From assembly GCA_001695645.1 (NCBI GenBank), contig LVZN01000012.1, positions 90,001 through 122,000 on the forward strand: a stretch of DNA of 32,000 nucleotides, written 5' to 3'. The position numbers and the translations under genes were made by a program. The notes beneath the pieces are model-generated. The model was not told the DNA's origin, did no database searches, and was given only the letters and a program-made list of their open reading frames with translations. Shown piece by piece: positions 1-26,201 of this stretch (its first letter is position 1; every line of letters starts with the position of its first letter). Origin of the DNA: Erysipelotrichaceae bacterium MTC7 (GTDB lineage Bacteria; Bacillota_I; Bacilli_A; Erysipelotrichales; Erysipelotrichaceae).

Positions 1-753
1 GAGGAGTTCTTTGAGAATCCAATAGATTACAGTTTTCTAGAAGCTCCTGTCGCACTTTCTATTATTTACGAAGATGCAAACATCTTGATTCTTGATAAGC
101 CAATTGGACTACTTGTGCATAGTGATATCAAAGCAGAAAAGGATACCTTGATACAACGAATTCTTCATTATCTTTATAAAAAGAAAGAGTATGATCCAAG
201 CAAGTCTCAAAGTTTTACGCCGGCTTTGGCTCATCGACTCGACCGAAATACACAAGGAATCATTATGGCAGCAAAAAATGCTGCAGCTTTACGTCATTTG
301 AATTTATTAATTAAAGAACGTGATGTGGATAAAGAGTATCTTGCTCTCATTGAAGGAAATTTAAAGAAAAAAACTGGAAATCTAGTTCACTATCATGAGA
401 AAGATAAAAATGGAAATGTTAGCATTCATGATGCACCTATGTCTGAAAAAAACAAAGAAGTACGATTGAAGTACAAAGTGCTGAAAACAACGAAAAAAAT
501 GGAAATGATTAATATCCATCTAGAAACAGGGAAATCTCATCAAATACGTGCTCAATTTGCATATATTGGACATCCTTTGGTCGGGGACACGCGCTATCAA
601 GCAAAGATTCACGATATGGACTATCAAGCACTCGCAGCATATCAAATTACATTTCATAGTAAAAATGATCGTGTATTTAGTTATTTAGACAATAAAAGCT
701 TTTGTATTCCAGAAACTGAACTGGAGAAATACTTTAAAGTAAAGAACAAGTGA
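1..753 (+). CDS. RluA-family pseudouridine synthase (5' end lies outside the window)
   Basis: Frame 1 is open from nt 1 (EEFFENPIDYSF...), so the TTG at 85 in the ORF track is internal. Motifs IIYEDANILILDKP, catalytic HRLDRNTQG and GKSHQIR are typical of RluA/RluD enzymes. Stop TGA at 751-753 is followed by a terminator. Confidence 0.85.
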   Translation, partial: EEFFENPIDYSFLEAPVALSIIYEDANILILDKPIGLLVHSDIKAEKDTLIQRILHYLYKKKEYDPSKSQSFTPALAHRLDRNTQGIIMAAKNAAALRHLNLLIKERDVDKEYLALIEGNLKKKTGNLVHYHEKDKNGNVSIHDAPMSEKNKEVRLKYKVLKTTKKMEMINIHLETGKSHQIRAQFAYIGHPLVGDTRYQAKIHDMDYQALAAYQITFHSKNDRVFSYLDNKSFCIPETELEKYFKVKNK

Positions 754-780
754 AAGTTTACATTTGTTCTTTTTCTTTCT
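743..780 (+). terminator. Rho-independent terminator after the pseudouridine synthase gene
   Basis: AGAACAA (743-749) pairs with TTGTTCT (764-770), followed by TTTTCTTTCT. Confidence 0.6.
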
Positions 781-892
781 AGTATGCTAATTTTTATATA
801 ATACAACGACATCTTATAAGTGAGTGTTTAGAACCGCGATGAACATTGGCTTATTTGATGATTTTAATTCCTACTAAAAAAAAGGACATGAG

Positions 893-920
893 TTGACATG
901 CGTTGGTTATATGCTATTAT
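893..920 (+). promoter_or_regulatory. Sigma-A-type promoter for the metalloprotease leader
   Basis: TTGACA (893-898), 16-nt spacer, TATTAT (915-920). Predicted start near 927, about 295 nt upstream of the ATG at 1223. Confidence 0.5.
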
Positions 921-922
921 TT

Positions 923-1222
923 AAGTAGGAAGTAGGGAAGGAAACAATTTCAAGCCTTTACATAGCCGCTCTTGCAGCGGCTATCGACAAAGGTTTAATT
1001 CCTACTTGATTCAAGGGTAATATGGTCTAAACCATGTAGGAAAGCCCATGAATAAAGGGATAAGCACTACATCTATTGTTGTCAGGGAAACAATAATGGA
1101 AAATCGTGAAAAGATTCATCATCCGGGAAGATTGATGGATAAAACAAAGTTCTTAATTCCTGCCGTTTGCGTGGGAAACATGGTCTAAGCCATGTAAAAG
1201 TGTGTGAAGGAGAGTCAAAGGG
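923..1222 (+). promoter_or_regulatory. Long structured 5' leader of unassigned class, with a duplicated bipartite motif
   Basis: 8-bp hairpin TAGCCGCT/AGCGGCTA (963-983). AAGTAGGA (923-930) is complementary to TCCTACTT (1000-1007), and the overlapping TTCCTAC (999-1005) is complementary to GTAGGAA (1036-1042). Units 989-1044 and 1146-1200 share TTAATTCCT, then 11 nt, then a 24-nt hairpin block matching at 21/24. Confidence 0.4.
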
Positions 1223-2338
1223 ATGAAAAAGCAATTGGGAATTGCCACTGCATTTGTGGTCGTCGCAATTGGTGCTTTTGTTTTTACAAGTCGTACCAGT
1301 GCCGACGAAATGTTGTATTCGCAAAAGGAAATGGTTGTTGAATACAATACGGAAGAAAAGATTAAACAGGACGTAAAACAAGCGTTGACGGAAGATGGGA
1401 AAGTGTTTCTACAATTTACAGAAGAAACAAAAGTGGACGCAAACGAATACAAGTTTATCGCAGAAGTAAAACAGTCAGACAATGAGATGGCGTATGCTGA
1501 TGAAATCGTAGAGGTGCTTGTGGATGTAGAAGATAGCCATGCACCAGTGATTGAAGCAAACACTGAACTTGTTGAACTTACAGAAGGTGATGCATTTTCA
1601 ATAGAAAGTTTAGAAATTAAGGCATATGATGTCATTGATGGTGAACTTGCATACAATATAACGGAAAATACTGTAGATACTTCTGCTGTTGGAGAACAAA
1701 AAATCGTGATTGAAGCAGTTGATGTAAATGAAAATACATCACGCAAAATCATTCAAGTACATGTAAAAGAGAAAGAGATTGTACAACCCGTACAACAAAG
1801 CAACGTACAAAGTGCCAATGAGGTACCTGTACAAAACCTAGCAAGTGCACAACCTGCACTTCCCGCACTTGATCGCAATAATTTATCTGTCAGAGGATGG
1901 AAAATCGTTGTCGGTGCAAATGTTAGCGACGATGTAATTCGCGCGTACATGTCAGAGTTAAACAACTTGCCAGGAAAGTATAATGCCAGTGTCTTACACA
2001 CGATTACCATTGATACCAGCATGCCATATCCATATTTAGGGATGGCCTATAGCGATGGAAGAATGTGGTTGAATGGTGCTAGTTATTATGCGACAACCGC
2101 TTTACACGAAGCAACGCACGCATATGATTTTGCGGCAAGAGCTTCACAGAATGGAGAATTCCAAGGAATCTTTCAAAGAGAAAGAGGACGTTTACCAATC
2201 AAGTTTAGTTCCAATATGAACGATAATGCGTATGAATGGTTAGCAAACGCCGTGGTCTTCTATTACTATGATCAAGGTACATTAGCTGCATCTGCTCCCG
2301 AAACTTATGCGTATGTAGCAAACAATGTATTGAGATAA
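1223..2338 (+). CDS. Secreted protein: signal peptide, Ig-like (DUF5011-type) domain and a C-terminal HExxH zinc-metalloprotease-like domain (anthrax LF / Pro-Pro endopeptidase-like)
   Basis: SD AAGGAGAG at 1207-1214. N-terminus MKKQLGIATAFVVVAIGAFVFTSRTSA looks like a signal peptide. The segment DSHAPVIEA...AYDVIDGEL...VDTSAVGEQKIVIEAVDVNENTS fits a bacterial Ig-like pattern. TTALHEATHAYDF is an HExxH motif. C-terminal NAYEWLANAVVFYYY...APETYAYV resembles the EFFAEAF...APxTFxFI tail of ATLF/M34-type proteases. Confidence 0.75.
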   Translation: MKKQLGIATAFVVVAIGAFVFTSRTSADEMLYSQKEMVVEYNTEEKIKQDVKQALTEDGKVFLQFTEETKVDANEYKFIAEVKQSDNEMAYADEIVEVLVDVEDSHAPVIEANTELVELTEGDAFSIESLEIKAYDVIDGELAYNITENTVDTSAVGEQKIVIEAVDVNENTSRKIIQVHVKEKEIVQPVQQSNVQSANEVPVQNLASAQPALPALDRNNLSVRGWKIVVGANVSDDVIRAYMSELNNLPGKYNASVLHTITIDTSMPYPYLGMAYSDGRMWLNGASYYATTALHEATHAYDFAARASQNGEFQGIFQRERGRLPIKFSSNMNDNAYEWLANAVVFYYYDQGTLAASAPETYAYVANNVLR

Positions 2339-2375
2339 ATAAAAACACAATTGGATCGCATAGCAATATGCAAAG

Positions 2376-2409
2376 AAAAACCTTGGTGCCCTCCGAAGGT
2401 TTTTTCTTT
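2376..2409 (+). terminator. Rho-independent terminator
   Basis: AAAAACCTTGG...CCGAAGGTTTTTTT stem-loop with a T-run. Confidence 0.65.
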
Positions 2410-2458
2410 ATCATATTGGTTTTAAATGATATACTTTTTGACATAAAGGAGCTATAGG

Positions 2459-3373
2459 ATGAAACTAGAGATAAAGAATATACACAAGAGTTTCGATGGA
2501 ACAGAAGTTCTACACGGAGTGAGTTTCTATGCAACAGAAGGCAGTGCATTAGGCTTGCTAGGTCGAAACGGTGCAGGGAAAACTACAACTATCCGCATTT
2601 TAATGGGTGTGTTTCATGCAAATGATGGAGAAGTCTTATTGGATGGGAAACCATTTGAACCAAATACACATAAAATCGGATATATGCCAGAAGAACGAGG
2701 CATGTACCCAAAGAAAAAAGTTCTTGAACAATTAATCTATTTTGGACAATTACGTAATGTTAGCAAACAAGAAGCTAAAGAAAATGCATTACGTCTATTA
2801 GATAAGCTAGGGATTCCAGAGTATGCAAATCGCAAACTTGAAACTCTATCAAAAGGTAACCAACAAAAAGTTCAACTTGTTCAAACTTTAATCAATGATC
2901 CGGAAATCATTATTTTAGATGAACCTTTTAGTGGTCTTGACCCAGTGAATTCGCAAATGTTAAAGGACCTAATTGAAGAAGAAATTACGCGTGGAAAACT
3001 GGTTATATTTTCTAGTCACCAGATGGGTTACGTAGAAGAATTTTGTAAGGATATCGTTATATTAAATAAAGGGGATGTCGTACTCAAAGGAGAATTGCGT
3101 AAAATACAAAAAGAGTATGGTGACCATAAGCTTATTTTAAATGCTAATAATATGACGACAAACGATTTGTCGAATCTACTTGAATCAAAATTAAAGGAAT
3201 GCATTCGAATGGTTGAAGTTAGAAAGGATTTCGTCATATTTGAAATTCTCGCAGGATATACAAAAAAAGAAATTACCCAAAAGGTGTTGGGCTTAGATAT
3301 CGATATTGATGTCTTTGGTGATTATAAACCAACATTAACAGACATCTTTGTAATGAAGGCGGGTGATGAATAA
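2459..3373 (+). CDS. ABC transporter ATP-binding protein (ABC-2 exporter type, YhaQ/NatA-like)
   Basis: Walker A GRNGAGKTT, signature LSKGNQQK, Walker B IIILDEP, plus a C-terminal extension. SD AAAGGAG lies upstream. The stop overlaps the permease start (ATAATG). Confidence 0.9.
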   Translation: MKLEIKNIHKSFDGTEVLHGVSFYATEGSALGLLGRNGAGKTTTIRILMGVFHANDGEVLLDGKPFEPNTHKIGYMPEERGMYPKKKVLEQLIYFGQLRNVSKQEAKENALRLLDKLGIPEYANRKLETLSKGNQQKVQLVQTLINDPEIIILDEPFSGLDPVNSQMLKDLIEEEITRGKLVIFSSHQMGYVEEFCKDIVILNKGDVVLKGELRKIQKEYGDHKLILNANNMTTNDLSNLLESKLKECIRMVEVRKDFVIFEILAGYTKKEITQKVLGLDIDIDVFGDYKPTLTDIFVMKAGDE

Positions 3374-4617
3374 TGAAACAGTTTCTATACATTCTACGCT
3401 GGGAGTTTTTAAATTTAGTAAAAGCCAAAGCTTATATAATTACTACCGTAGTTTTCATTATCATTGCACTTGTTGGCTTTTCAGTTCCAACGATGATGGG
3501 AGGAATTGGTGATTCAAATGCAGATACCGCAATTGTTGAGCAAGATATAGAAAAACGAAGTTATGCAGTTTATGATCCGACAAGCTTTTTAGCTGGAGCA
3601 GATATGACTTTACAGCTGTATTTACCCAATGCAACGTTTGTGGAAGTGAACTCTGATGATGCATTAAAACAATCAGTAACAGACAAAAAAGTTGATGCTG
3701 CATTATCCATACACGATGGTGGTGATTTTACTTATTATGTGAAAAACAATAGTTTAACCGATACATCGAAATATATACTTCAAGAAACGTTCTCACAAAT
3801 CAAGCGTAATCATGCATTTGCTGATGCAGGAATTGATGCAAATCAAGTCATGGACATTTATTACAGTAACACCGTTTCAGCGGATACTGTAAGCTTAGGG
3901 GCAGATGCAACCAATAGTATGATTTACACATTCCCATTAATTATGTTGATTTATATGGTCGTTGTATTGTACGGAAATATCATTGCAACAACTGTTGCTA
4001 GTGAAAAAGGTAATCGCACGATGGAACTGCTAGTAACCAGCGCAAACTCAAATGCGTTAATTTTTGGAAAGGTACTTGCAGGTGTACTTGCAGCAATTTT
4101 GCAAGTAGGTTTGTTTGTATCAGTAAGCCTCTTTGCATATTCAATCAATCGTGTAAGTTGGGGAGGTCTATTAGATTCTATTCTTAATATACCGATGGAA
4201 ATTATCGTGTCGTTTGCACTGTTTGGAATCTTTGGTTTTATCTTCTATGCATTTATATTTGGTGCAATCGGAGCACTGGTCTCTAAAAGCGAAGACGTAA
4301 ACAGCAGTGCAACACCACTTACATTTTTATTTTTGATTATTTATTTTGTTGTTTATTTTGGAGTTATGGTGGATCCTGGAGGAGTTATGTTTACCGCAGC
4401 ATCAATGATTCCATTAAGTTCGCCAATGGCAATGTTTGCGCGAATGGCAGTCGTTGATGTTCCTTTATATCAAGTAATTGTTGCATTTATACTTTTACTT
4501 GTATCTACTGTTTTGACTGGTTTTGGAGCGGCAAAGATTTACCGCAGAGGAACCTTAATGTATGGAAATCAAGTAAAGTTATCACATGCATTAAAATGGT
4601 TAAGAAAAAAAGATTAA
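3373..4617 (+). CDS. ABC-2 family permease (YhaP/NatB-like) with a large extracytoplasmic loop after TM1
   Basis: Translationally coupled to the ATPase. One N-terminal TM, then a roughly 150-aa hydrophilic loop, then 5-6 C-terminal TM segments. This architecture is typical of ABC-2 exporters. Confidence 0.85.
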   Translation: MKQFLYILRWEFLNLVKAKAYIITTVVFIIIALVGFSVPTMMGGIGDSNADTAIVEQDIEKRSYAVYDPTSFLAGADMTLQLYLPNATFVEVNSDDALKQSVTDKKVDAALSIHDGGDFTYYVKNNSLTDTSKYILQETFSQIKRNHAFADAGIDANQVMDIYYSNTVSADTVSLGADATNSMIYTFPLIMLIYMVVVLYGNIIATTVASEKGNRTMELLVTSANSNALIFGKVLAGVLAAILQVGLFVSVSLFAYSINRVSWGGLLDSILNIPMEIIVSFALFGIFGFIFYAFIFGAIGALVSKSEDVNSSATPLTFLFLIIYFVVYFGVMVDPGGVMFTAASMIPLSSPMAMFARMAVVDVPLYQVIVAFILLLVSTVLTGFGAAKIYRRGTLMYGNQVKLSHALKWLRKKD

Positions 4618-4623
4618 ACTCAA

Positions 4624-4656
4624 ATAGCAAACTTCCTAGTAAGTTTGCTATCTTTA
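4624..4656 (+). terminator. Probable terminator after the ABC-2 operon
   Basis: 11-bp stem ATAGCAAACTT/AAGTTTGCTAT (4624-4651). The T-run is weak (CTTTAT). Confidence 0.5.
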
Positions 4657-4757
4657 TATCTTGCGGCAAGTATATCAAGTATATATAGATAAATGTCGCT
4701 TGCGAGAATTATTCGTGTATAATCATATAGGATTACATAGGAAAGTCAGGTAATAAA

Positions 4758-6050
4758 ATGAAAATTGGATTTATATCATTAGGATGTAGTAAAAATTTAG
4801 TAGATAGTGAAAATATTATGGGTATGTTTCGTGGAGTTCACGAACTTGTGAATGATCCAAACGAAGCAGAAGCTATTGTTATCAATACATGTGGTTTTAT
4901 TGAGTCGGCTAAAGCGGAAGCCATTAATACCATTTTAGAGATGGCAGAGTATAAAAAGCAAAACTTAAAGAAATTAATTGTTGTTGGATGTCTTGCACAA
5001 CGTTATAAAGATGATCTAGAAGCAGAGATTCCAGAAGTTGATGCTTTTGTTTCAATTCGCGAATATCCACATTTACATGAAATATTGGAATATCATCTAG
5101 GAGAACCATTAAAAACTTATAATAAAAATGAACGTTTGCTTTCAAGTAAGCCATATACAGCATATATGAAAATTGCTGAAGGGTGCAGCAACTGTTGTAC
5201 GTTTTGTGCGATTCCTTTAATTCGTGGAGGTAATGTATCATATCCAAAAGAAGATTTGATCACACAGGCGAAAAACTTAGCTGAAACTGGTGTCAAAGAA
5301 CTTGTTCTAATTGCACAAGATACAACAAAATATGGATTGGACCTGTATGGTAAACTATCTTTGTTGGATTTACTAACTGAGTTAAATACCATTGATGGTC
5401 TTCATTGGATTCGTATTCTATATATGTATCCTGATGAAATTGAAGATTCACTTATTGATGGCATGAAGCAATTGGATAAGGTAATTCCTTATTTTGATAT
5501 ACCAATGCAACATGCAAATAACGATTTGTTAAAGAAAATGAATCGTCGTGGAACAAAAGAAGCAGTGATTGATACTATTGCAAAAATTCGTGCAACATGG
5601 AAGCACCCAACACTACGTACAACATTTATTGTTGGGTTTCCTGGTGAAACGGAACGTGACTTCGAGGAGCTTTGCCAATTTGTTAAAGATGCACGTTGGG
5701 ATCGTATGGGGGCATTTACGTATTCGCCAGAAGAAGATACAAAGGCATACGATATGGATGACCAAATTGCGGAAGATGTTGCACAGACAAGATTGGATCA
5801 ACTCATGCGTTTACAAAAAGATATAGCACTTGAAAACAATCGTGCTTTTATTGGTGAAACAGTTGAAGTTTTAGTTGAATCGCAAGAAGGATTAACTGGA
5901 AAGTATCGTGGACGCAGTAAGATGAACGCACCGGATGAAGTAGATGGACTGGTGATTTTTACAAGTGATAAGGTATTGCCATTTGGTAGTTTTGTAGAAG
6001 TAGAAATTACAGATGCACTGCCATACGATTTAATCGGAAAACAAGTGTAA
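4758..6050 (+). CDS. rimO: Ribosomal protein S12 methylthiotransferase RimO (radical SAM, MiaB/RimO family)
   Basis: N-terminus MKIGFISLGCSKNLVDSE is the RimO-type UPF0004 domain. Radical-SAM CxxxCxxC motif in EGCSNCCTFCAIP. C-terminal TRAM-like GETVEVLVE...FVEVEITDA. Length 430 aa. Confidence 0.85.
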   Translation: MKIGFISLGCSKNLVDSENIMGMFRGVHELVNDPNEAEAIVINTCGFIESAKAEAINTILEMAEYKKQNLKKLIVVGCLAQRYKDDLEAEIPEVDAFVSIREYPHLHEILEYHLGEPLKTYNKNERLLSSKPYTAYMKIAEGCSNCCTFCAIPLIRGGNVSYPKEDLITQAKNLAETGVKELVLIAQDTTKYGLDLYGKLSLLDLLTELNTIDGLHWIRILYMYPDEIEDSLIDGMKQLDKVIPYFDIPMQHANNDLLKKMNRRGTKEAVIDTIAKIRATWKHPTLRTTFIVGFPGETERDFEELCQFVKDARWDRMGAFTYSPEEDTKAYDMDDQIAEDVAQTRLDQLMRLQKDIALENNRAFIGETVEVLVESQEGLTGKYRGRSKMNAPDEVDGLVIFTSDKVLPFGSFVEVEITDALPYDLIGKQV

Positions 6051-6055
6051 TTACA

Positions 6056-6088
6056 AAGGTGTAGGCAATCGTTTACACCTTTTATTAT
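6056..6088 (+). terminator. Rho-independent terminator after rimO
   Basis: AAGGTGTA (6056-6063) pairs with TACACCTT (6074-6081), then TTTATTAT. Confidence 0.7.
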
Positions 6089-6156
6089 AAATAATCTAGC
6101 CTGTGACTTTGTAAAACACACAAATTATGTATAATTAAATTAGGGAAGGAATGTTT

Positions 6157-6318
6157 ATGAAGTTACTCAGCTATGTGTTTTTATTATTGATCATAATGGC
6201 AACTGTTGTCATATTAAATGGAAACCCGCACACGGTTACGGGTTTTATTATGATGTCTATTGCCGCTGCAGTCATCGTTATTTCCTTAGTAGCAATGTAT
6301 ATAGTTTGGCGTGAATAG
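6157..6318 (+). CDS. Small hydrophobic protein, 53 aa, two predicted TM helices (below the ORF-track size cutoff)
   Basis: Extended -10 TGTATAAT (6128-6135). SD GGGAAGGA (6143-6150) lies 6 nt before ATG 6157. Product MKLLSYVFLLLIIMATVVILNGNPHTVTGFIMMSIAAAVIVISLVAMYIVWRE. TAG at 6316-6318, then a weak hairpin and T7 run. Confidence 0.45.
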   Translation: MKLLSYVFLLLIIMATVVILNGNPHTVTGFIMMSIAAAVIVISLVAMYIVWRE

Positions 6319-6347
6319 TTGCTTTGGACCTGGACAAGGTTCTTTTT

Positions 6348-6590
6348 TTATGGTGTTGTACTTTCAATAAACCAGCGATTAATCTCATAAAACAGATTGC
6401 GCTCATTTTTGCCAATACGACAACGGTATAGAATTCCACAACCACCAACTTTACTTGCAGCTTTTCGTACTTCAAGAATACGATCGATCTTGTATTTTTC
6501 GCCATTGTGCCAAATGATATATACAGGAGTTAAACTTCCATATTCATCGCAGACAGTAATCACTTTAATGTACTTTTTAAAAAATTTCAT
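6348..6590 (-). CDS. 80-aa protein translationally coupled to the Y-family polymerase (putative TLS accessory subunit)
   Basis: ATG 6590 lies 2 nt after the polymerase TAA (minus strand ...GGTAGTTTATAATTATGAAA). Product MKFFKKYIKVITVCDEYGSLTPVYIIWHNGEKYKIDRILEVRKAASKVGGCGILYRCRIGKNERNLFYEINRWFIE. No family recognised with certainty. Confidence 0.7.
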   Translation of the reverse strand: MKFFKKYIKVITVCDEYGSLTPVYIIWHNGEKYKIDRILEVRKAASKVGGCGILYRCRIGKNERNLFYEINRWFIESTTP

Positions 6591-6592
6591 AA

Positions 6593-7855
6593 TTATAAAC
6601 TACCTTTTAAAAATCCAACCGGATGGGTGGTATGTGAACCTTTTGGATCAACGTGGCTTAAGTTTTTATCAACAAGTGCAGATGCTTGACTTACACTATA
6701 AAAACCGTACTTTTGGCGAATATCTTCTAACACAATTTCCACTTTTCTAGATTTTGCCTTCGCGATGGTATCTTCAAATAAACTAAGTTGATAATGCGTA
6801 TTTGTTTTTACAAGCCCAGAAACATGAACACCAATGCTGCGAATAGGTAAAACAAAATCATAACTTTCACCTAACAATTCCATAATAATAGATAAAATTT
6901 CATTACAAGTATCCAAGGCAACCTCAACTTTACGTTGATGGGTAAATCGATGAAGATTGGTGTCTCGCACAGACAGTGTAATGACTTTTCCCATTAACTG
7001 TTTTTCGCGTAGCCGGCATGCAACAGAATTGCTTAGTCGTTCCAATACGATTTTTGCTTCACTTGTGTTTGTAATATCTTTCGGTGTAGTCCAAGAATTG
7101 CCAATTGATTTTGGTGGTAATTCAAATGTTTCCAAAGTTACTTCACTTGTTTCCATTCCGTTTGCATAACTCCAAATTAAGACACCCATCTTACCTAATT
7201 TGTTTTTTAGTGTTGTTACAGAACTGTTTGCCAAGTCACCAATTGTTTTAATATTCATAAGTGCAAGTTTTTTAGCGGTTGAACGTCCAACCATCAATAA
7301 ATCATCAACCGGCATAGACCAAGCAAAGTCTTGAAAGTTGTCTTTTGTAATTTCAGTGATGGCATTAGGCTTTTTATAGTCGGATCCAAGCTTAGCAAAC
7401 ACCTTATTGAAACTGACACCGATGGATACGGTTAATCCGTACTCATGTAACACTCGTCTTTGAATCTCTTGTGCAATGGTAAGTCCATCCCCGAATACGT
7501 TAAGGGAGTCACTCACATCAAGCCAAGCTTCATCTAAGCCGAAATCTTCTACGCGATCAGTATACTCATGGTAGATTTCTTTTATTTTGGACGTATAGTA
7601 CAAATAATTTTGCATATTTGCTTGTACAATTTGTAACTCAGGACATTTCTTGAGTGCACTTCGAATGGGTTCTCCAGTAAGGATTCCATAGGGTTTGGCT
7701 TTTATGTTTTTAGCCAGGATAATGCCATGTCGTTGACTCTCATCACCACCAACGGCCATTGGTACTTCACGTAATGGAGGACAAAGCATTTCTTCAATTT
7801 GCGCGTAACAATGATTAATATCAATGTGTAATATCGTTCTCGATTTGTTTTCCAT
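6593..7855 (-). CDS. Y-family (UmuC/DinB/ImpB-type) translesion DNA polymerase
   Basis: N-terminus ILHIDINHCYAQIEEM..., FGLDEAWLDVS with catalytic acidic residues, SIGVSFNKVFAKLGSDYKKPN, and little-finger-like C-terminus. Strong SD AGGAGGA upstream of ATG 7855. Confidence 0.9.
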   Translation of the reverse strand: MENKSRTILHIDINHCYAQIEEMLCPPLREVPMAVGGDESQRHGIILAKNIKAKPYGILTGEPIRSALKKCPELQIVQANMQNYLYYTSKIKEIYHEYTDRVEDFGLDEAWLDVSDSLNVFGDGLTIAQEIQRRVLHEYGLTVSIGVSFNKVFAKLGSDYKKPNAITEITKDNFQDFAWSMPVDDLLMVGRSTAKKLALMNIKTIGDLANSSVTTLKNKLGKMGVLIWSYANGMETSEVTLETFELPPKSIGNSWTTPKDITNTSEAKIVLERLSNSVACRLREKQLMGKVITLSVRDTNLHRFTHQRKVEVALDTCNEILSIIMELLGESYDFVLPIRSIGVHVSGLVKTNTHYQLSLFEDTIAKAKSRKVEIVLEDIRQKYGFYSVSQASALVDKNLSHVDPKGSHTTHPVGFLKGSL

Positions 7856-7888
7856 GATCGTATCCTCCTATCTAGAGCATATCATAAA

Positions 7889-7917
7889 ATTACCAATTTT
7901 CAATGAAAAATGGTAAT
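7889..7917. promoter_or_regulatory. Candidate repressor operator in the divergent promoter region
   Basis: Inverted repeat ATTACCAATTTT-CAATG-AAAAATGGTAAT, arms matching 11/12. It is centred between the polymerase and repressor genes. Confidence 0.45.
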
Positions 7918-7942
7918 GAAATTATCTATTTTTTTATCAAGT

Positions 7943-7971
7943 TTGCATTGTTACAAATATAGTGATAATAT
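7943..7971 (+). promoter_or_regulatory. Candidate promoter of the repressor-SRAP operon, geometry implying a leaderless mRNA
   Basis: TTGCAT (7943-7948), 17-nt spacer, TG-extended TAATAT (7966-7971). The A of ATG 7978 is 7 nt after the -10. No SD precedes any of the first four Met codons. Confidence 0.4.
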
Positions 7972-7977
7972 AATGTC

Positions 7978-8568
7978 ATGAATAAAGATATTATGAAACA
8001 TCAAATGGATATGCTTAAAATTACACCAAAAGATATCTCAAAACATTTAGATGTCGGTGTCTCAAGCGTTTATCGTTGGTTAGATGGAACAACAAGAAAT
8101 ATTCCACAGGAAAAACAAGATCGTTTAGCAGAAATACTGCAACTTTCTTCACGTGCATTGGATGATGATGCACAAAACTTACTAAAGCCAATTTTAGGCA
8201 ATGTGAAAGCAGGGTATAATTTATATGCAAACGAAGACTTGCTTGGCTATGAAGAAGTCACTGAACTTGAAGCGTCGAAAGGGGATTATTATTTAAAGGT
8301 ACAAGGCGATTCGATGATAGGTGTTGGTATTTTCGATGGTGATCTTGTTTATGTGAAGCAATGCTCAGAAGTGGAAAATCACAAAATTGCTGTGGTATTG
8401 GTTGGGGAAGAAGTGACAATAAAAAAAGTCATCATGAAAGATGACGTCCTTATTTTAGAGGCTGCTAACCAAACTGTATCCAATCGTTTTTTTAATAAAA
8501 ATGAAATTGAAGTCCTACCTGTGCGTATCATAGGACAAGTTCTTCACTCAAAAAGGGATTTTTCCTAA
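7978..8568 (+). CDS. XRE-type HTH fused to an S24 (LexA/UmuD-like) autopeptidase domain; HdiR/CI-like damage-inducible repressor
   Basis: N-terminal HTH (ITPKDISKHLDVGVSSVYRWLDG). Ala-Gly cleavage site in GNVKAGYN. Ser nucleophile in VQGDSMIGVGI and Lys in VTIKKV. It lacks the LexA winged-helix N-terminus. Confidence 0.85.
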   Translation: MNKDIMKHQMDMLKITPKDISKHLDVGVSSVYRWLDGTTRNIPQEKQDRLAEILQLSSRALDDDAQNLLKPILGNVKAGYNLYANEDLLGYEEVTELEASKGDYYLKVQGDSMIGVGIFDGDLVYVKQCSEVENHKIAVVLVGEEVTIKKVIMKDDVLILEAANQTVSNRFFNKNEIEVLPVRIIGQVLHSKRDFS

Positions 8569-18738: not shown

Positions 18739-19932
18739 ATGAAATATTTACAGATCACAGATGATTTTTACTGGATAGGTGTTGAAAACCCAGATTTACG
18801 TCGATTTGACATTATCATGGAGACAGAATTTGGAACAACTTACAACTCATACCTATTGAAAACAACAGAAGGAGTTGTGCTATTTGAAACGGTGAAAGAT
18901 AAATTCTTTGACGTTTATTTAGAAAAGGTAAAAGAACTGGTGAAACTTGAAGATATCAAGTATATCGTATGTAACCACACAGAACCAGATCACTCGGGTT
19001 CAATAGAAAAATTCTTAGAACTTAATCCAAACATTGAAATTCTTTCTACAATTGCTGCCCAAAATAACTTGAAGGAAATTGTTAATGGACCATTCAATGG
19101 ACGCATTGTTAAAGACCAAGAAGAACTTACAATCGGAGGACGTACGTTACGTTTTATTATGGCACCAAACTTACATTGGCCAGATACGATGTACACATAC
19201 ATCGTAGAAGAAGAAATTTTAATTACATGTGACTCATTTGGAGCGCACTATGCTACCAATGAAGTCTTACTTTCACAAGTTGCTAATCGTGAAAACTACG
19301 AACGTGCCTTTACGTACTATACAAATATGATTATGGGACCGTTTAAACCGTTTGTCGCAAAAGCGATGGATAAAATCCGAGATTTACCAATTCGTTATAT
19401 TGCAACAGGACATGGTTGCTTAATTGACCAGGAAGTTGAAGACTTTATCAAACGTTACGATGACTTTACAAAGGTAAAGGTAAATGAAGTGAAGAAGGTT
19501 GTTATTGCGTATGTGACAGCATATGGATATACGCGTGAAATGGCAAATATCATTAAAGCAGAATTAGAACAGCACAACCTACATGTTGAAATTTATGATC
19601 TTGTTGAAGACGATAATGATAAAGCTTATGAAGCGATTGTACAAGCTGACGGAGTTCTTTATGGATCTTGTACCATTGTTGGAGATGCACTTCCACCAAT
19701 TTGGCAATTAATGAACCGTGTCTTGACTGCTTATGATGGTATTAAAGTCGCTAGCGCTTTTGGAAGTTATGGATGGTCAGGAGAAGCAGTTCCAAACTTA
19801 ATGGTTCGTTTAAAACAACAAAAAATGAAACTTGTAGACGAAGGGTTACGCGTTAAATTTAAACCAAGTGAAGCACAAAAAGAAGAAATACGTGCTTATG
19901 CAGAAAACTTTGCAAAGGCACTTGTTGATTAA
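18739..19932 (+). CDS. Flavodiiron protein (FprA-type: metallo-beta-lactamase-like domain plus flavodoxin domain)
   Basis: Di-iron ligand motif NHTEPDHSGS, and a C-terminal flavodoxin-like VVIAYVTAYGYTREMA...GSCTIVGD. About 400 aa. Confidence 0.85.
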   Translation: MKYLQITDDFYWIGVENPDLRRFDIIMETEFGTTYNSYLLKTTEGVVLFETVKDKFFDVYLEKVKELVKLEDIKYIVCNHTEPDHSGSIEKFLELNPNIEILSTIAAQNNLKEIVNGPFNGRIVKDQEELTIGGRTLRFIMAPNLHWPDTMYTYIVEEEILITCDSFGAHYATNEVLLSQVANRENYERAFTYYTNMIMGPFKPFVAKAMDKIRDLPIRYIATGHGCLIDQEVEDFIKRYDDFTKVKVNEVKKVVIAYVTAYGYTREMANIIKAELEQHNLHVEIYDLVEDDNDKAYEAIVQADGVLYGSCTIVGDALPPIWQLMNRVLTAYDGIKVASAFGSYGWSGEAVPNLMVRLKQQKMKLVDEGLRVKFKPSEAQKEEIRAYAENFAKALVD

Positions 19933-19954
19933 AGTGAAAATCTTGGTATAATAG

Positions 19955-20180
19955 AGAAATAAAATACGATGAATAGAAGGAGTACTTACAAAGATTTAAT
20001 AGAGAGCTGTTGGTTGCTGAAAAACAGTAAATGGATGTAAGGAAGGTAGTCTAGGAGTAGATGTTCTGAGTTTAGTAAGAATGTCCGGTTACAGCCGTTA
20101 TCTGTTTAAGGCATACATTGTATGCAAATTAAGGTGGTACCACGAGCATTCGTCCTTTGGGATGGATGCTTTTTATTTTA
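19955..20180 (+). promoter_or_regulatory. T-box riboswitch leader, candidate valine (GUA) specifier
   Basis: Extended -10 TGGTATAAT (19944-19952). Stem I has GATGA, AGTA and AGAGAG elements. The upper helix CTTACA/TGTAAG flanks specifier loop GAAGGTAG (GUA at 20046-20048). T-box sequence AATTAAGGTGGTACCACG lies at 20127-20144 (UGGU complements ACCA). An 11-bp terminator at 20145-20170 is followed by TTTTATTTT. Confidence 0.85.
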
Positions 20181-20193
20181 ACAAGGAGCACAT

Positions 20194-20730
20194 ATGGAAC
20201 AACGATTTCAAATCGAAACGGATCGTTTACTTTTACGACAAATGAATCGTTCAGACTATGATGATTTAAAGAACATCTTGGCTGATCCAGAAGTGATGTA
20301 TGCTTATGAAGGTGGCTTTAGCGATACAGAAATTCAACAGTGGTTTGAAAAGCAACAAACACGCTACCAAAACGATGGGTTTGGTTTATGGGCTGTTGTG
20401 CTTAAACAAACTGGTAAGATGATTGGAAACTGTGGTTTAACCTACCAGCAAACACCGTGGGGAACTGTTTTAGAAGTTGGCTATCTATTTGCCTACGCAT
20501 ATTGGAATCGCGGGTATGCAAGTGAAGCAGCACGTGCTTGTGTCAATTATGCGTTTACACAACTGAAAGTTGATACGGTGTACGCTTTGATACGCGATAC
20601 CAATCAAGCTAGTATCCGTGTGGCAAAAGCGCTGGGGATGAAGGAAGAAAGTGAACGTAGCTTTGATAAACACTATCGTGGTGTAACCATGCGACACGTT
20701 ACATATAAATTAATAAAGAAGGAGAATCAG
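20194..20730 (+). other. GNAT domain portion of the fused ORF (would be a stand-alone 179-aa protein if a stop were present)
   Basis: SD AAGGAG lies 6 nt before ATG 20194. The reading frame continues ...AAG GAG AAT CAG ATG AGA... with no stop codon. Confidence 0.8.
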
Positions 20731-23349
20731 ATGAGAAACACATTAGAAGCAAAATATGATCATCAGAAAATTGAAAGCAAATACTATGATCATTGGGTAA
20801 AAAATGGCTATTTTACAGCAGGAGATACAAGTAAAACACCATATGCAATGGTGATTCCGCCGCCAAATGTAACAGGTAAGTTACACCTTGGACACGCCTG
20901 GGATACGACGTTACAAGACATCGTAGCTAGATACAAACGTTTGCAAGGATTTGATGTACTGTGGCTAGCAGGAATGGATCATGCGGGAATTGCAACGCAA
21001 GCAAAAGTTGATGAACGCCTAAAAACACAAGGGATTTCACGTTACGATATCGGACGTGAAAAGTTCTTGGAGCATGCGTGGAACTGGAAAGAAGAATATG
21101 CAAGCCATATTCGTGAACAGTGGGCAACTTTAGGATTGTCGCTTGATTATACAAGAGAACGTTTTACTTTGGATTCAGGGTTGAATCAAGCAGTAAACAA
21201 AATCTTTGTTGATTTATACAACGATGGATTGATTTATCAAGGGGAACGAATTATAAACTGGGACCCAGAAGCAAAAACTGCTTTATCAAACATCGAAGTT
21301 ATTCATAAAGAAATTGAAGGTGCAATGTATACCTTCAACTATAAAGTAGTGGAAACAGGACAAGAATTACAAGTTGCAACAACACGACCAGAAACAATGT
21401 TTGGCGATGTTTGTGTTGTGGTTCATCCAGATGATGCACGTTATAAAGATGTTGTTGGTTTACATGTCATCAACCCAGCAAATGGGCAAGAATTACCAAT
21501 TATTACCGATGACTACATTGATGTAGAATTTGGAACAGGAGTGATGAAATGTACACCTGCACATGATCCAAATGACTTTGTAATTGGTCAAAAATATCAT
21601 TTACCAATGCCAATTTGTATGAATCCTGATGGAACGATGAATGATTTGGCTGGAAAATATGTTGGAATGGACCGCTTTGCTTGTCGTAAAGCTCTAGTTG
21701 AAGATGCAAAAGCAGCTGGAACTTTGATCAAAATTGAAAAACATATGCACCAAGTAGGTCACTCGGAACGAACGGATGCGATTGTTGAACCATATCTTTC
21801 AAAACAATGGTTTGTAAAGATGCGCCCATTAGCGGATGAAGTAATTAAAAATCAAGAAATTGAAGATCAAAAAATCAACTTCACACCAAAACGATTTGAA
21901 CATACATTTAATCAGTGGTTAGAAAAAATTGAAGACTGGTGTATCTCACGCCAATTGTGGTGGGGACACAGAATTCCCGCTTGGTATCACAAAGATACTG
22001 GAGAAATCTATGTTGGATTACAAGCACCTGAGGATATTGATAACTGGCAACAAGATGAAGATGTATTGGATACATGGTTCTCAAGTGCACTATGGCCATT
22101 CTCAACACTTGGGTGGCCTGAAGAAACACCTGATTTTGAACGTTACTATCCAAATGATACATTAGTTACAGGATATGACATTATCTTCTTCTGGGTAGCT
22201 AGAATGGCATTTCAAGCACGCTATGCAACGCACAGTCGTCCGTTTAAAGACGTATTGATTCATGGGCTTGTTCGTGATGAACAAGGTCGTAAGATGTCTA
22301 AATCGCTTGGTAATGGAGTTGATCCGATGGATGTTATTGCAAACCATGGTTGTGATGCAATGCGTTTCTTTTTAACGACAAACTCTACACCGGGACAAGA
22401 TTTACGTTACATTGATGAAAAAGTAGATAGTTCAAGTAACTTTATAAACAAAATCTACAATGCATCAAAATTTGTTCTTATGCATATCACAGATACATTT
22501 GATCATGAAAGCATTGACTTAAGTAAAGCAACAACAATTGATAAATGGATTATTAAACGCTTTAATGAGACACTTAAAAATGTAAGTGAAAACATGGACC
22601 GTTTTGAGTTTGCTTTAGTTGGTAATGAATTGTATGCATTTATTTGGAACGACTTCTGTAACTGGTACATCGAATTAAGTAAAGCAAGTTTACAAAGTGA
22701 TGATCCAGGAGTAAAAACTGCTGCTAAATCGACACTATTACTGGTACTAGAAGGTATCTTAAAAATGCTTTCACCATTTATGCCATTTGTGACAGAAGAG
22801 ATTTATTTATCACTTCCACACATGCAAGAATCGATGAATCTTGAAACATGGCCAAGTGCAATTGCAACAGATATCATGGATGTAGAAATGGAAGAAGTAA
22901 AACGTTTGATTTCCATGGTTGAAGCAGTACGTGAAGTAAAAGCAACGTATAAACTTAAACCAAGTGCACCAGTAGAAGTACTTGTTAAAGATAGAGAAGA
23001 AAACGTTGAAGCTACGAATACCTTCATTAATGCATTCCTTGAACAAATGTGTAAAGCAACTTGGGTAACTGATGCAAAAGCAGAAGAAATGGTTGTACGA
23101 CCAGTGTATCAAGGTTCGATTTCAATTCCTTTGGCATCATTAATTGATATTGAAGAAGAAAAGAAAAAATTGGAATCTGACAAGAAAAAACTTGAAGGTG
23201 AAATCAAACGTGCGGAAGGTATGCTTGCCAATCCAAATTTCACCAACAAAGCTCCAGAAGCTAAAGTTCATGCAGAAAAAGAGAAGTTGGAAAACTATAA
23301 AAACCAATATGATATTGTTGTAAAGCGATTATCAGAATTACAAAAATAA
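20194..23349 (+). CDS. valS: GNAT N-acetyltransferase (RimJ/RimL/Acetyltransf_3-type) fused in frame to valyl-tRNA synthetase
   Basis: One uninterrupted 1051-codon ORF. Residues 1-179 form a GNAT (ETDRLLLRQMNRSDYDDLKNILADPEVMYAY, WNRGYASEAARACVNYAF). From Met180 it is canonical ValS (PPPNVTGKLHLGHA, KMSKS, C-terminal coiled coil). An internal SD AAGGAG lies 7 nt before ATG 20731. Confidence 0.9.
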   Translation: MEQRFQIETDRLLLRQMNRSDYDDLKNILADPEVMYAYEGGFSDTEIQQWFEKQQTRYQNDGFGLWAVVLKQTGKMIGNCGLTYQQTPWGTVLEVGYLFAYAYWNRGYASEAARACVNYAFTQLKVDTVYALIRDTNQASIRVAKALGMKEESERSFDKHYRGVTMRHVTYKLIKKENQMRNTLEAKYDHQKIESKYYDHWVKNGYFTAGDTSKTPYAMVIPPPNVTGKLHLGHAWDTTLQDIVARYKRLQGFDVLWLAGMDHAGIATQAKVDERLKTQGISRYDIGREKFLEHAWNWKEEYASHIREQWATLGLSLDYTRERFTLDSGLNQAVNKIFVDLYNDGLIYQGERIINWDPEAKTALSNIEVIHKEIEGAMYTFNYKVVETGQELQVATTRPETMFGDVCVVVHPDDARYKDVVGLHVINPANGQELPIITDDYIDVEFGTGVMKCTPAHDPNDFVIGQKYHLPMPICMNPDGTMNDLAGKYVGMDRFACRKALVEDAKAAGTLIKIEKHMHQVGHSERTDAIVEPYLSKQWFVKMRPLADEVIKNQEIEDQKINFTPKRFEHTFNQWLEKIEDWCISRQLWWGHRIPAWYHKDTGEIYVGLQAPEDIDNWQQDEDVLDTWFSSALWPFSTLGWPEETPDFERYYPNDTLVTGYDIIFFWVARMAFQARYATHSRPFKDVLIHGLVRDEQGRKMSKSLGNGVDPMDVIANHGCDAMRFFLTTNSTPGQDLRYIDEKVDSSSNFINKIYNASKFVLMHITDTFDHESIDLSKATTIDKWIIKRFNETLKNVSENMDRFEFALVGNELYAFIWNDFCNWYIELSKASLQSDDPGVKTAAKSTLLLVLEGILKMLSPFMPFVTEEIYLSLPHMQESMNLETWPSAIATDIMDVEMEEVKRLISMVEAVREVKATYKLKPSAPVEVLVKDREENVEATNTFINAFLEQMCKATWVTDAKAEEMVVRPVYQGSISIPLASLIDIEEEKKKLESDKKKLEGEIKRAEGMLANPNFTNKAPEAKVHAEKEKLENYKNQYDIVVKRLSELQK

Positions 23350-23567
23350 AACACGAAACGTAAGCTATATCAAAAAAGCGTATTCCTTAGAAACGAAACA
23401 GTTCCTGAGATAACGCTTTTTTTATTTGCATATTTTACCCAAAATTTCCAAATATCCTACCGTTTATGACCACTCGCTATGGGTGTCAGTGGTATTCACT
23501 GTATAGTTTCGATATAATAATACTTGTGAAAACGATTACACAGTTGATTGATAAGGAGGTCCTATAT

Positions 23568-26201
23568 ATGGGGGATAAATTTGTTTATTCATTTCATGAA
23601 GGAAATGAAACAATGCGAAACTTGCTTGGAGGTAAGGGAGCAAACTTAGCTGGTATGATTAATTTGGGAATGCCAGTTCCTAATGGGTTTACCGTTACAA
23701 CCGAAGCTTGTAACAAGTATTACGATGATGGTGAAAAGATTGATAATGCAATTGTTAATGAGATTTTTACACATCTAGAAGAATTAGAAAAAACATCAGG
23801 CAAAGTATTTGGTGATCCGAACAATCCATTACTTGTATCTGTACGTAGTGGTTCACGGGCAAGTATGCCTGGAATGATGGATACCATTCTTAACTTAGGG
23901 TTGAATGATGATGTCGTGGAAGGTCTTGCAAAACTTACCAATAATCCAAGATTTGCATATGATTCATATCGTCGATTTATTCAAATGTTTGCGGATGTTG
24001 TTATGGGATTATCAAAATCGAAATTCGAAACGGTAATCGATGATATTAAAGCTGAACGTAAAGTGGAATTGGATACCGATCTTACAACCGACGATTTAAA
24101 AGAAATGGTTCGTCGTTTCAAATCGTTCTATCATGCTGAATTAAAAGCAGATTTCCCATTAGATCCTAAAGAACAACTTGCTTTAGCGATTGAAGCCGTT
24201 TTTAAATCTTGGAACAATCCTAGAGCGATCTACTATCGTAAAATGAACGATATTCCTTCAAGCTGGGGAACTGCAGTTAACGTGCAAATGATGGTCTTTG
24301 GAAATATGGGAGATACATCTGGTACGGGAGTTGCCTTTACACGTAACCCAAGTACAGGGGAAAATAAACTGTATGGTGAATTCTTAATGAATGCACAAGG
24401 TGAAGATGTTGTTGCTGGTATTCGTACGCCAAACCACATCAGTGAACTAAAAAAGGTTATGCCTGAAGCTTACGACGAGTTTGTGGCAATCGCGAAACGT
24501 TTGGAAGAACACTATCATGATATGCAGGATATGGAATTTACCATTGAAAATAAAAAACTGTATATGCTACAAACACGAAACGGAAAACGTACAGCTAAAG
24601 CAGCATTAAAAATTGCATGTGACTTAGTGGACGAAGGTTTACTAACAAAAGAAGAAGCAATTCTAATGGTCAATCCTAATCAATTGGATGCATTATTACA
24701 TCCACAGTTTGATATGGACGATATAAAAGGTGAAACACCAATTGCTACTGGTCTTCCGGCTTCACCAGGGGCTGCAACAGGGCAAGTTGTCTTCAATGCA
24801 GAAGATGCAACAGCATATGCTTTAAAAGGTCACAGAGTGATTCTTGTGCGTCTAGAGACATCTCCAGAAGATATTGAAGGTATGAACTCATCAAAAGGTA
24901 TTTTGACGGTTCGTGGTGGTATGACGAGTCACGCAGCTGTTGTTGCGCGTGGTATGGGAATTTGTTGTGTTTCTGGAGTTGGTGAAATCAAAATCAACGA
25001 AGAAAACAAAACGTTTACCGTTGGAGGAAAAACATACAAAGAATACGACTATATCTCACTTGATGGATCAACTGGACATGTGTATGGTCGTGAACTAAAA
25101 ACAGTACCTGCTTCCATTCAAGATGAATTCCAAACATTTATGGATTGGGCAGATGAATTTAGAACATTAAAAGTACGAACAAATGCAGATACGCCTAGAG
25201 ATGCAAAACAAGCATTGTCGTTTGGTGCAGAAGGAATTGGACTTGTGCGTACGGAACATATGTTCTTTGAAGGGGAACGAATCAAAGCAATTCGTGAAAT
25301 GATTGTTTCAAAAACAAGTGATCAAAGAAAACGTGCACTTGCAAAATTATTGCCAATGCAAAAAGGTGACTTCGAAGCGATTTATGAAGCGATGGAAGGA
25401 CGTCCAGTCACAGTTCGTTACTTAGATCCACCATTACATGAATTCTTACCAACATCTTCATACGATATTACACAACTCGCACTGGATATGGGAATGGAAG
25501 TTGACGAATTAAAAGGAATCATTCAAGGATTGCATGAATTCAACCCAATGATGGGACATCGTGGAGTACGTCTTGATATTTCTTATCCAGAAATCGCAGA
25601 AATGCAAACACGCGCAGTTATTGAAGCAGCTATCGCGGTAAACAAGCGCAATGCTAACTTTAAAGTTGTGCCTGAAATTATGATTCCGCTTGTAGGTGAC
25701 GTGGCAGAATTACGATACGTAAAAGCTGTAGTGAAGAAAGTCGCTGATGAAATCATAGCTGAAGCTGGCATAAAACTTGAATACTTGGTAGGTACGATGA
25801 TTGAAATTCCTCGTGCTGCGTTGACTGCAGATGAAATTGCAGAAGAAGCAGAGTTCTTCTCGTTTGGAACGAATGACCTTACACAAATGACATTTGGATT
25901 CTCACGAGATGATGCTGGTAGTTTCTTAAATGACTACTATGACAAACACATCTATGAACAAGACCCATTCCAACGCTTGGACCAAAAAGGGGTTGGAAAA
26001 CTTGTAAAAATGGCAGTTGAACTTGGGCAAAAAACAAGACCGAATATCAAACTTGGTATTTGTGGGGAACATGGTGGAGACCCATCAAGTATTGAGTTCT
26101 GTCACAATGTTGGACTTCAGTATGTTTCATGTAGTCCATTTAGAGTACCGATTGCACGTCTTGCAGCAGCGCAAGCAGCAATTCGTCAAAACAATAAATA
26201 G
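23568..26201 (+). CDS. ppdK: Pyruvate, phosphate dikinase
   Basis: SD AAGGAGG precedes ATG 23568 (MGDKFVYSFHEG...), so the track's 23466 start is upstream read-through. Motifs LGGKGANLAGM, phospho-His GGMTSHAAVVARG, and C-terminal PEP-utilising domain GICGEHGGDP. Confidence 0.93.
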   Translation: MGDKFVYSFHEGNETMRNLLGGKGANLAGMINLGMPVPNGFTVTTEACNKYYDDGEKIDNAIVNEIFTHLEELEKTSGKVFGDPNNPLLVSVRSGSRASMPGMMDTILNLGLNDDVVEGLAKLTNNPRFAYDSYRRFIQMFADVVMGLSKSKFETVIDDIKAERKVELDTDLTTDDLKEMVRRFKSFYHAELKADFPLDPKEQLALAIEAVFKSWNNPRAIYYRKMNDIPSSWGTAVNVQMMVFGNMGDTSGTGVAFTRNPSTGENKLYGEFLMNAQGEDVVAGIRTPNHISELKKVMPEAYDEFVAIAKRLEEHYHDMQDMEFTIENKKLYMLQTRNGKRTAKAALKIACDLVDEGLLTKEEAILMVNPNQLDALLHPQFDMDDIKGETPIATGLPASPGAATGQVVFNAEDATAYALKGHRVILVRLETSPEDIEGMNSSKGILTVRGGMTSHAAVVARGMGICCVSGVGEIKINEENKTFTVGGKTYKEYDYISLDGSTGHVYGRELKTVPASIQDEFQTFMDWADEFRTLKVRTNADTPRDAKQALSFGAEGIGLVRTEHMFFEGERIKAIREMIVSKTSDQRKRALAKLLPMQKGDFEAIYEAMEGRPVTVRYLDPPLHEFLPTSSYDITQLALDMGMEVDELKGIIQGLHEFNPMMGHRGVRLDISYPEIAEMQTRAVIEAAIAVNKRNANFKVVPEIMIPLVGDVAELRYVKAVVKKVADEIIAEAGIKLEYLVGTMIEIPRAALTADEIAEEAEFFSFGTNDLTQMTFGFSRDDAGSFLNDYYDKHIYEQDPFQRLDQKGVGKLVKMAVELGQKTRPNIKLGICGEHGGDPSSIEFCHNVGLQYVSCSPFRVPIARLAAAQAAIRQNNK

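Follow-up and report, generated by a model that had tools for sequence, protein, structure and literature searches.

The window analysed here, a 32,000-nt stretch of contig LVZN01000012.1 of Erysipelotrichaceae bacterium MTC7 (positions 90,001 to 122,000), raises the question of whether a GNAT acetyltransferase is really joined to valyl-tRNA synthetase (ValS) in one polypeptide, and what such a joint would mean. As the original prediction stated, a single open reading frame (ORF) at 20194..23349 of the plus strand encodes 1051 amino acids (aa), in which the GNAT runs into ValS without a stop codon (...YKLIKKENQ-MRNTLEAKYD...). Pfam places PF13302 at aa 11-150 of this protein (E 1e-34), together with tRNA-synt_1, Anticodon_1 and Val_tRNA-synt_C. 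The NCBIfam ValS equivalog NF004349 matches aa 186-1043 with 1139 bits against a cutoff of 704, and a second ValS equivalog model (TIGR00422) scores 1085 bits against a cutoff of 612. Our analysis shows that the locus is a GNAT-valS operon of some insect-gut Breznakia, controlled by a valine T-box, in which a genuine and recent loss of a stop codon has fused the two genes. The fusion combines familiar parts in a familiar way, is restricted in lineage and is polymorphic. It is probably a tolerated covalent version of a pre-existing 1:1 translational coupling, which we infer to be roughly neutral, rather than a new catalytic device; we judge it a tolerated variant because the GNAT can be lost and because the stop or sense state of the junction differs between near-identical strains.

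An obvious objection is that the window genome really has a stop codon at the junction and that the fusion is a sequencing or assembly artefact. However, a metagenome contig and an independently assembled read set (L001 and L002) encode the identical 1051-aa protein. The window differs from these at 84 of 11156 positions (0.75%), so it represents a different strain, and 26 of the 84 differences fall in the ORF; because the fusion proteins are identical, all 26 are synonymous and none is nonsynonymous. CAG is therefore the junction codon in two strains of the species to which the window belongs. The supporting assembly ERZ15185563 NODE_89 is thinly covered (2.1 per its contig name), which speaks for an artefact, but it and the window are different strains by these 84 differences in 11 kb, and CAG is present in both. 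The in-frame CAG junction (...AAT CAG ATG...) is also found in a B. blatticola-like sister species (L003, L004 and L006), where three further read sets and four NCBI isolate proteins have CAG, which likewise speaks against an artefact. The 90%-identity cluster of the fusion holds a 1050-aa fusion in four NCBI isolate accessions of 'unclassified Breznakia' (MDH6367435.1 and three sister accessions), as well as a 1102-aa call of the 1050-aa fusion from an upstream start. Because a second strain and a sister species share the CAG junction, the fusion is genuine; CAG in independent strains and species rules out the artefact, and the chance that the window genome hides a stop codon is negligible.

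The junction takes several states among the relatives. The GNAT is joined in frame to valS by CAG in the window and in L001, L002, L003, L004 and L006; these represent the window's species and a part of the sister species. Five read sets (L007-L010 and L093) encode a separate 178-aa GNAT whose stop codon abuts the valS start (...AAG AAG GAG AAT TAG ATG...), and the sole junction change between fused and TAG loci is T/C at window position 20728. L091 (B. pachnodae) and L094 encode a separate 174-aa GNAT with its stop 9-10 nt 5' of valS. A GNAT is absent from L005 (B. blatticola), in which the T-box U tract is followed by a 51-nt linker and then by valS, and it is absent upstream of valS in L092 (Breznakia sp. 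PF5-3), L095 and L096. The GNAT is dispensable, as shown by its absence from these close relatives. The original prediction had suggested looking for a separate GNAT ORF in close relatives, and L007-L010 and L093 carry one, while the others lack a GNAT. It had also held that a stop codon between the domains in close relatives would reduce the fusion to an assembly error or an ordinary two-gene operon; the stop codon is there in the TAG loci, but the fusion is not an assembly error, since independent strains carry CAG.

DNA distances computed over valS and the upstream ODP/flavodoxin gene show how close these states lie to each other. The window is 16.5% distant from the blatticola group, and B. 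pachnodae and PF5-3 stand at about 25%. The fused L003 and the stop-containing L007 differ by 2.7%, and L005, without a GNAT, is about 3.5% from both, so that loci separated by only 2.7-3.5% include all three states: fused, two-gene and without a GNAT. Because close relatives carry TAG or no GNAT, the fusion differs by one base from an ordinary two-gene operon with translational coupling, varies at the level of strains and, on the genomes compared, is not a conserved domain architecture. The older arrangement, as judged from B. pachnodae L091 and from L094, is that of two genes. The loss of the GNAT in B. blatticola is read from the pairwise DNA distances only, because the 51-nt linker, aligned as a remnant of both GNAT ends, scores no better than shuffled controls.

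The features of the locus are collected in Table 1.

Table 1. Regulatory and coding features of the GNAT-valS locus, in window coordinates.
Feature	Position	Strand	Description
Promoter-like site	19925..19952	+	TTGATT-16 nt-TATAAT, TG extension before the -10 hexamer (TGgTATAAT); 10/12 consensus matches; assigned by consensus match only
T-box leader RNA	19960..20160	+	Rfam RF00230, 145.1 bits against a gathering score of 93, E 9e-33
Intrinsic terminator of the T-box	20144..20181	+	12-bp stem (hairpin 20144-20171), then U tract
Shine-Dalgarno AAGGAG for GNAT	20183..20188	+	5 nt 5' of ATG 20194; kept in L003, L006 and L007
GNAT coding part	20194..20727	+	178 codons; PF13302 Acetyltransf_3
Internal Shine-Dalgarno AAGGAG for valS	20719..20724	+	6 nt 5' of ATG 20731; inside GNAT codons K-K-E
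Junction codon CAG (Gln179)	20728..20730	+	homologous codon is the stop TAG in L007-L010 and L093
valS, complete bacterial valine-tRNA ligase	20731..23349	+	872 aa; ATG used as start in all relatives

The promoter-like site overlaps the end of the upstream ODP/flavodoxin gene. The valine T-box with its terminator, which the original prediction had already placed upstream of the GNAT, is confirmed by a full-length match to RF00230 (model positions 1-219). Its specifier codon at 20046-20048 is GUA (Val), because the 3' side of the specifier loop, with eight unpaired bases, reads GAA-G-GUA-G in the RF00230 alignment register, and this motif is common to all relatives examined. The leader is kept in L005, L007, L091 and L092 and can be aligned across the loci, and the alignment across relatives stops exactly at the terminator U tract. 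The T-box sequence AAGGTGGTACCACG overlaps the 5' arm of the terminator hairpin, which gives a predicted terminator/antiterminator platform upstream of GNAT-valS.

In T-box regulation, uncharged tRNA stabilises the antiterminator. At this locus, uncharged tRNA-Val would stabilise the T-box antiterminator, and the transcript would then run through both the GNAT and valS. In the TAG strains, ribosomes would stop at the TAG beside the valS ATG, and the Shine-Dalgarno sequence in the last GNAT codons would provide classic translational coupling. In the window, ribosomes starting at 20194 would make the 1051-aa GNAT-ValS, and the internal Shine-Dalgarno sequence together with the ATG at 20731 would allow a free 872-aa ValS by dual initiation. 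This internal signal is present as the original prediction described, except that its spacing is 6 nt and not 7 nt, and it is unchanged, like the valS ATG, in both fused and stop-containing relatives. The ValS proteins of the relatives have 871-875 aa and the N-terminus MRN(T/I)LEAKYD. From these signals, it is reasonable to expect two products, the fusion and free ValS. The GenBank entry for this bacterium, OCN05238.1 (P0122), is an 872-aa ValS that starts at the internal ATG and matches the synthetase portion of the window protein at every residue; the GNAT may have been left without annotation there.

The GNAT itself is a full-length member of a free-standing acetyltransferase family of about 170-185 aa, whose members are 50-60% identical to the window GNAT and occur in Bacillota, Coriobacteriia, Bacteroidales and spirochaetes. 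All 38 of the 38 family-invariant residues are present in it, and PF13302 matches over profile positions 1-138 of 138 (126 bits against a gathering score of 25.4), with E 2e-36 for the GNAT coding part. The conserved core of the family stops at window residue 173, beyond which the tails vary. An AlphaFold2 model of the GNAT domain alone has a mean predicted local distance difference test (pLDDT) score of 94.7, and in a model of the whole fusion, residues 10-170 have a pLDDT of about 90, the GNAT fold stops at residue 174, residues 175-189 form a coil, and the first ValS helix begins at residue 190. The joint thus looks flexible in the model, with a length of about 12-15 residues, and the geometry between the domains is not readable from the fusion model because the ValS core is poorly modelled (predicted TM-score 0.46). 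Pairwise ratios of nonsynonymous to synonymous substitution rates (dN/dS) are 0.09-0.11 for the GNAT, about 0.045 for ValS and 0.03-0.09 for the ODP gene. The GNAT is under purifying selection, the fused lineages included, and its coding part differs between two fused strains of the window's species by 5 synonymous and 0 nonsynonymous changes. We infer that the 1051-aa polypeptide is made, because selection acts on a GNAT that has no stop codon of its own in the fused genomes.

The original prediction had assigned the GNAT to the RimJ/RimL/MccE type, a label that is true only at the level of the Pfam family, since similarity specific to RimL or MccE is found neither by sequence, nor by profile, nor by fold rank. 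MccE2 (the C-terminal domain of MccE) and RimL, which acetylate the alpha-amine of processed microcin C and aminoacyl-nucleotides (PMC8323819), share PF13302 and the GNAT fold with the window GNAT. E. coli RimL, however, has no significant similarity to the window GNAT by BLASTP (E = 2.2), a profile comparison with hhalign gives RimL 82% probability with 24% identity over 89 columns, and the NCBIfam equivalogs RimJ, RimL and RimI do not match the window GNAT. No RimL or MccE chain of the PDB is found at E <= 0.001 by sequence search or at E <= 0.01 with the family profile, and in the Foldseek ranking of the GNAT model RimL stands 39th and MccE is absent from the top 50. The PDB search by sequence puts the uncharacterised 3FBU and PA3944 nearest among solved structures, followed by BlmB and SpeG-type enzymes, and PA3944 is the top sequence match among characterised relatives (E 3e-18). 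PA3944 is also the best fold match in Foldseek, with a TM-score of 0.90, a root-mean-square deviation of 1.8 A and 28% identity, the next matches lying at about 0.78-0.80.

PA3944 of Pseudomonas aeruginosa (PDB 6EDD and 7KPS) acetylates the 3-Dab amine of polymyxin B/colistin and the analogue NANMO in vitro, with Ser148 as the catalytic residue and Glu102 positioning the substrate (PMC8072286). The family-invariant S140 and E94 of the window GNAT align to S148 and E102 of PA3944. The two proteins are therefore alike in fold and in the aligned catalytic Ser/Glu pair, but they are only 28% identical, and PA3944 is free-standing with no known link to an aminoacyl-tRNA synthetase (aaRS), unlike the window GNAT, which adjoins or is joined to ValS. 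We judge the GNAT to be a putative accessory PA3944-like amine N-acetyltransferase, its chemistry being predicted, and we judge that it would be expressed on valine or tRNA-Val limitation under the Val T-box.

Several observations weigh against the view that the fusion and its GNAT are mere tolerated variants. The same CAG allele is found in two species that are 16.5% apart, so that the fused state could be old and maintained; by parsimony, an ancestral CAG with a regained stop codon and a CAG that arose twice need two changes each. In addition, the slot that separates the T-box terminator from valS is filled in two Breznakia clades by different members of the GNAT family (2466-2990 in L091, 1967-2491 in L094 and 20194-20730 in the window). 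The B. pachnodae-type and window-type loci are 51% identical in the GNAT, 82% in ValS and 65% in the ODP protein. A neighbour-joining tree does not place the two Breznakia GNAT types as sisters (a joint clade appears in 0 of 300 bootstraps), and the window GNAT comes 35th when the 38 neighbours of the pachnodae GNAT are ranked, but this tree is built on 171 columns and weakly resolved, and the recurrence in the slot remains a lead. A passenger gene present by pure accident would not be expected to recur by family in this slot, and the recurrence suggests that selection in some way links this GNAT family to the expression of valS behind its T-box.

Synonymous divergence (dS) along the locus is also uneven. 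Between the window and L003, dS is 0.46 for the GNAT, 0.92 for ValS and about 2.9 for ODP, with 92% conservation of the GNAT against 86% of the ODP protein; between L003 and L007, dS is 0.21 for the GNAT and 0.11 for ValS. The identities, the tree and the uneven dS together suggest recombination, with repeated capture or in-situ (xenologous) replacement of the GNAT. This pattern suggests that the GNAT may have arrived by such capture or replacement and not by simple vertical descent.

Comparison with known systems shows which parts of the locus are ordinary. Like the Bacillota operons in which a T-box (RF00230) regulates valS or another aaRS gene, the locus has a sigma-A-type promoter followed by a leader with a Val specifier, a terminator and an antiterminator, and then by valS, and in the GNAT-less relatives the leader directly precedes valS, as in the known systems. 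Unlike them, the window has an extra GNAT cistron between the terminator and valS, which is joined in frame to valS. Loss of a stop codon between translationally coupled genes is a general way in which gene fusions are created. As in other such cases, the relatives have in-frame neighbours with a TAG abutting an ATG, and one T-to-C change fuses the ORFs, but here one partner is an essential synthetase, and both allelic states and the GNAT-less state coexist among loci 2.7-3.5% apart.

An aaRS that carries a GNAT is not without precedent, because NCBIfam curates NF040702, 'isoleucine-tRNA ligase, N-acetyltransferase domain-containing'. The window GNAT matches positions 281-430 of this model (E 7e-10). 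The window fusion is not a member of the family, as its whole-protein score is 250.6 bits against a cutoff of 1999, and the architectures differ, the GNAT being internal to IleRS in NF040702 and N-terminal on ValS in the window. No publication on the NF040702 family was found in the literature, and as a conserved aaRS-GNAT architecture it may merit a look of its own.

The original prediction knew of no described GNAT-ValS fusion, and our searches agree with it. No description of an aaRS-GNAT fusion or of a T-box-regulated GNAT was found in the literature, and no other GNAT-ValS fusion is present in the best 150 matches to a junction query among 1.84 billion cluster representatives, although fusions inside clusters remain possible. 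A word-indexed fusion search was uninformative, as it did not return the window fusion itself. Both the GNAT-ValS fusion and a GNAT cistron inside a valS T-box operon thus appear to be undescribed so far. Long matches (P0377, P0503 and P0504) were rejected as GNAT-ValS fusions because they are unrelated. P0377 (1653 aa) has an N-terminal GATase, at least three PF13302 GNAT domains in the middle of the protein and a C-terminal GMP synthase; it resembles a guaA that either is split by an array of GNATs of this family or has been joined to one, and it could be a gene-calling artefact. P0503 (1595 aa) and P0504 (1628 aa) contain a full ValS with N-terminal extensions of about 760-790 residues that have no Pfam match.

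The neighbourhoods of the GNAT family were surveyed at 160 loci (80 from GTDB and 80 from metagenomes). A T-box motif upstream of the GNAT homologue is found at 0 of the 160 loci. The 128 immediate neighbours of the GNAT homologues fall into 133 Pfam families; other GNATs head the list, and the families shared by at least two loci include no aaRS. A conserved GNAT-aaRS neighbourhood across the family was not found in this survey, whose loci have no T-box or operonic aaRS link. The sole aaRS neighbour in the survey is at L070, a locus of a Microbacterium metagenome-assembled genome, where valS lies 1.2 kb downstream, past an opposite-strand AbiEi/DUF559 gene. At L070 (Microbacterium sp., NZ_JASGHZ010000001.1, about 1-8334), the GNAT homologue at 4001-4507 (+) stands between two aaRS-related features. 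The minus strand carries a class Ia aaRS-like region (2530-11) and the exact T-box core motif GGGTGGTACCGCG at 2774, and the plus strand carries 'alt_ValS' at 5722-8334, with a pentapeptide-repeat ORF and the opposite-strand AbiEi/DUF559 gene in between. Rfam finds no T-box at L070 at the gathering score, and the assembly is based on Oxford Nanopore reads and may contain frameshifts.

The function of the GNAT can be read in different ways. It is possible, though unlikely, that the GNAT acetylates a free amino acid or a valine analogue, for example a non-protein one misactivated by ValS, or another small amine during valine limitation, the fusion then being incidental. This would fit the Val T-box, which ties expression to valine or tRNA-Val limitation, the purifying selection on the GNAT, and the PA3944-like fold with its conserved catalytic Ser/Glu, given that PA3944 acts on small primary amines, but the family neighbourhoods elsewhere yield no metabolic clue. 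Slightly more doubtful is an adaptive antidote, as proposed by the original prediction, in which the T-box would sense the inhibition of ValS through uncharged tRNA-Val and induce a GNAT able to N-acetylate the inhibitor, be it a valyl-adenylate mimic or some other compound, with tethering giving local protection. The GNAT is under Val-T-box control and is translationally coupled or joined to ValS, the same family has entered the slot twice, apparently independently, the closest relatives of known activity act on primary amines of antibiotics (PA3944 on polymyxin, PMC8072286; BlmB/TlmB), and MccE2 is a precedent for a GNAT that detoxifies aminoacyl-nucleotides (PMC8323819). On the other hand, the GNAT has no specific similarity to MccE or RimL, it is missing in very close relatives, the stop or sense state is polymorphic, the family elsewhere has no operonic aaRS or T-box link in the 160 loci, and the gene tables show no producer cluster or transporter for such an inhibitor beside the locus. 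Detoxification of aminoacyl-adenylates as such draws no specific support from these results. We give the same low credence to the idea that the locus is an inducible self-defence module against a valyl-adenylate mimic or a valine antimetabolite of gut competitors, with ValS and the GNAT co-induced and the antidote tethered at its target; if it were true, the two distantly related GNATs in the same slot would reflect selection for the coupling.

The least probable of these functions, and a highly improbable one, is an action of the GNAT on the translation machinery, in which acetylation of ValS, Val-tRNA-Val or a ribosomal protein would regulate translation during valine starvation. The toxins TacT, AtaT and ItaT acetylate charged tRNA, and RimJ and RimL acetylate ribosomal proteins. 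The GNAT belongs to PF13302, which includes RimJ and RimL, and it is physically coupled to ValS, but the RimJ, RimL and RimI equivalogs and the BLASTP comparison with RimL give no match, as described above. Type II toxin-antitoxin toxins such as TacT, AtaT and ItaT adjoin a small antitoxin gene (DUF1778 or ribbon-helix-helix), whereas no small antitoxin-like ORF stands beside the window GNAT, whose flanks are the T-box leader and valS. It is also implausible that a toxin would be co-induced with an essential synthetase and yet be dropped so readily by sister strains.

If the fusion is no more than a tolerated stop loss, which we prefer, the locus offers a clean natural case in which a multidomain synthetase arises by one mutation from a coupled operon, with the no-GNAT, two-gene and fused states still segregating among close relatives. 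If, instead, the GNAT-valS coupling is selected, it would point to a T-box-gated resistance or housekeeping function against ValS inhibitors or valine analogues, and this idea could be tested directly, since every genotype is represented by isolates.

The interval between valS and ppdK also varies among Breznakia (5754-7586 in L091, 5254-7086 in L094, 5632-6033 in L092 and 5270-7510 in L096). It contains a helix-turn-helix regulator and an ABC transporter in one clade and a Polyketide_cyc2 protein in another, and in L096 it contains TipC, DUF6577 and AbiEii genes. The surroundings of valS in Breznakia seem to be insertion-prone. In the window, the ppdK ORF (23466-26201) has 911 aa from its first ATG, compared with 877 aa in the blatticola-group loci and 875-886 aa in remoter relatives, and the true ppdK start probably lies about 34 codons downstream of the first ATG.

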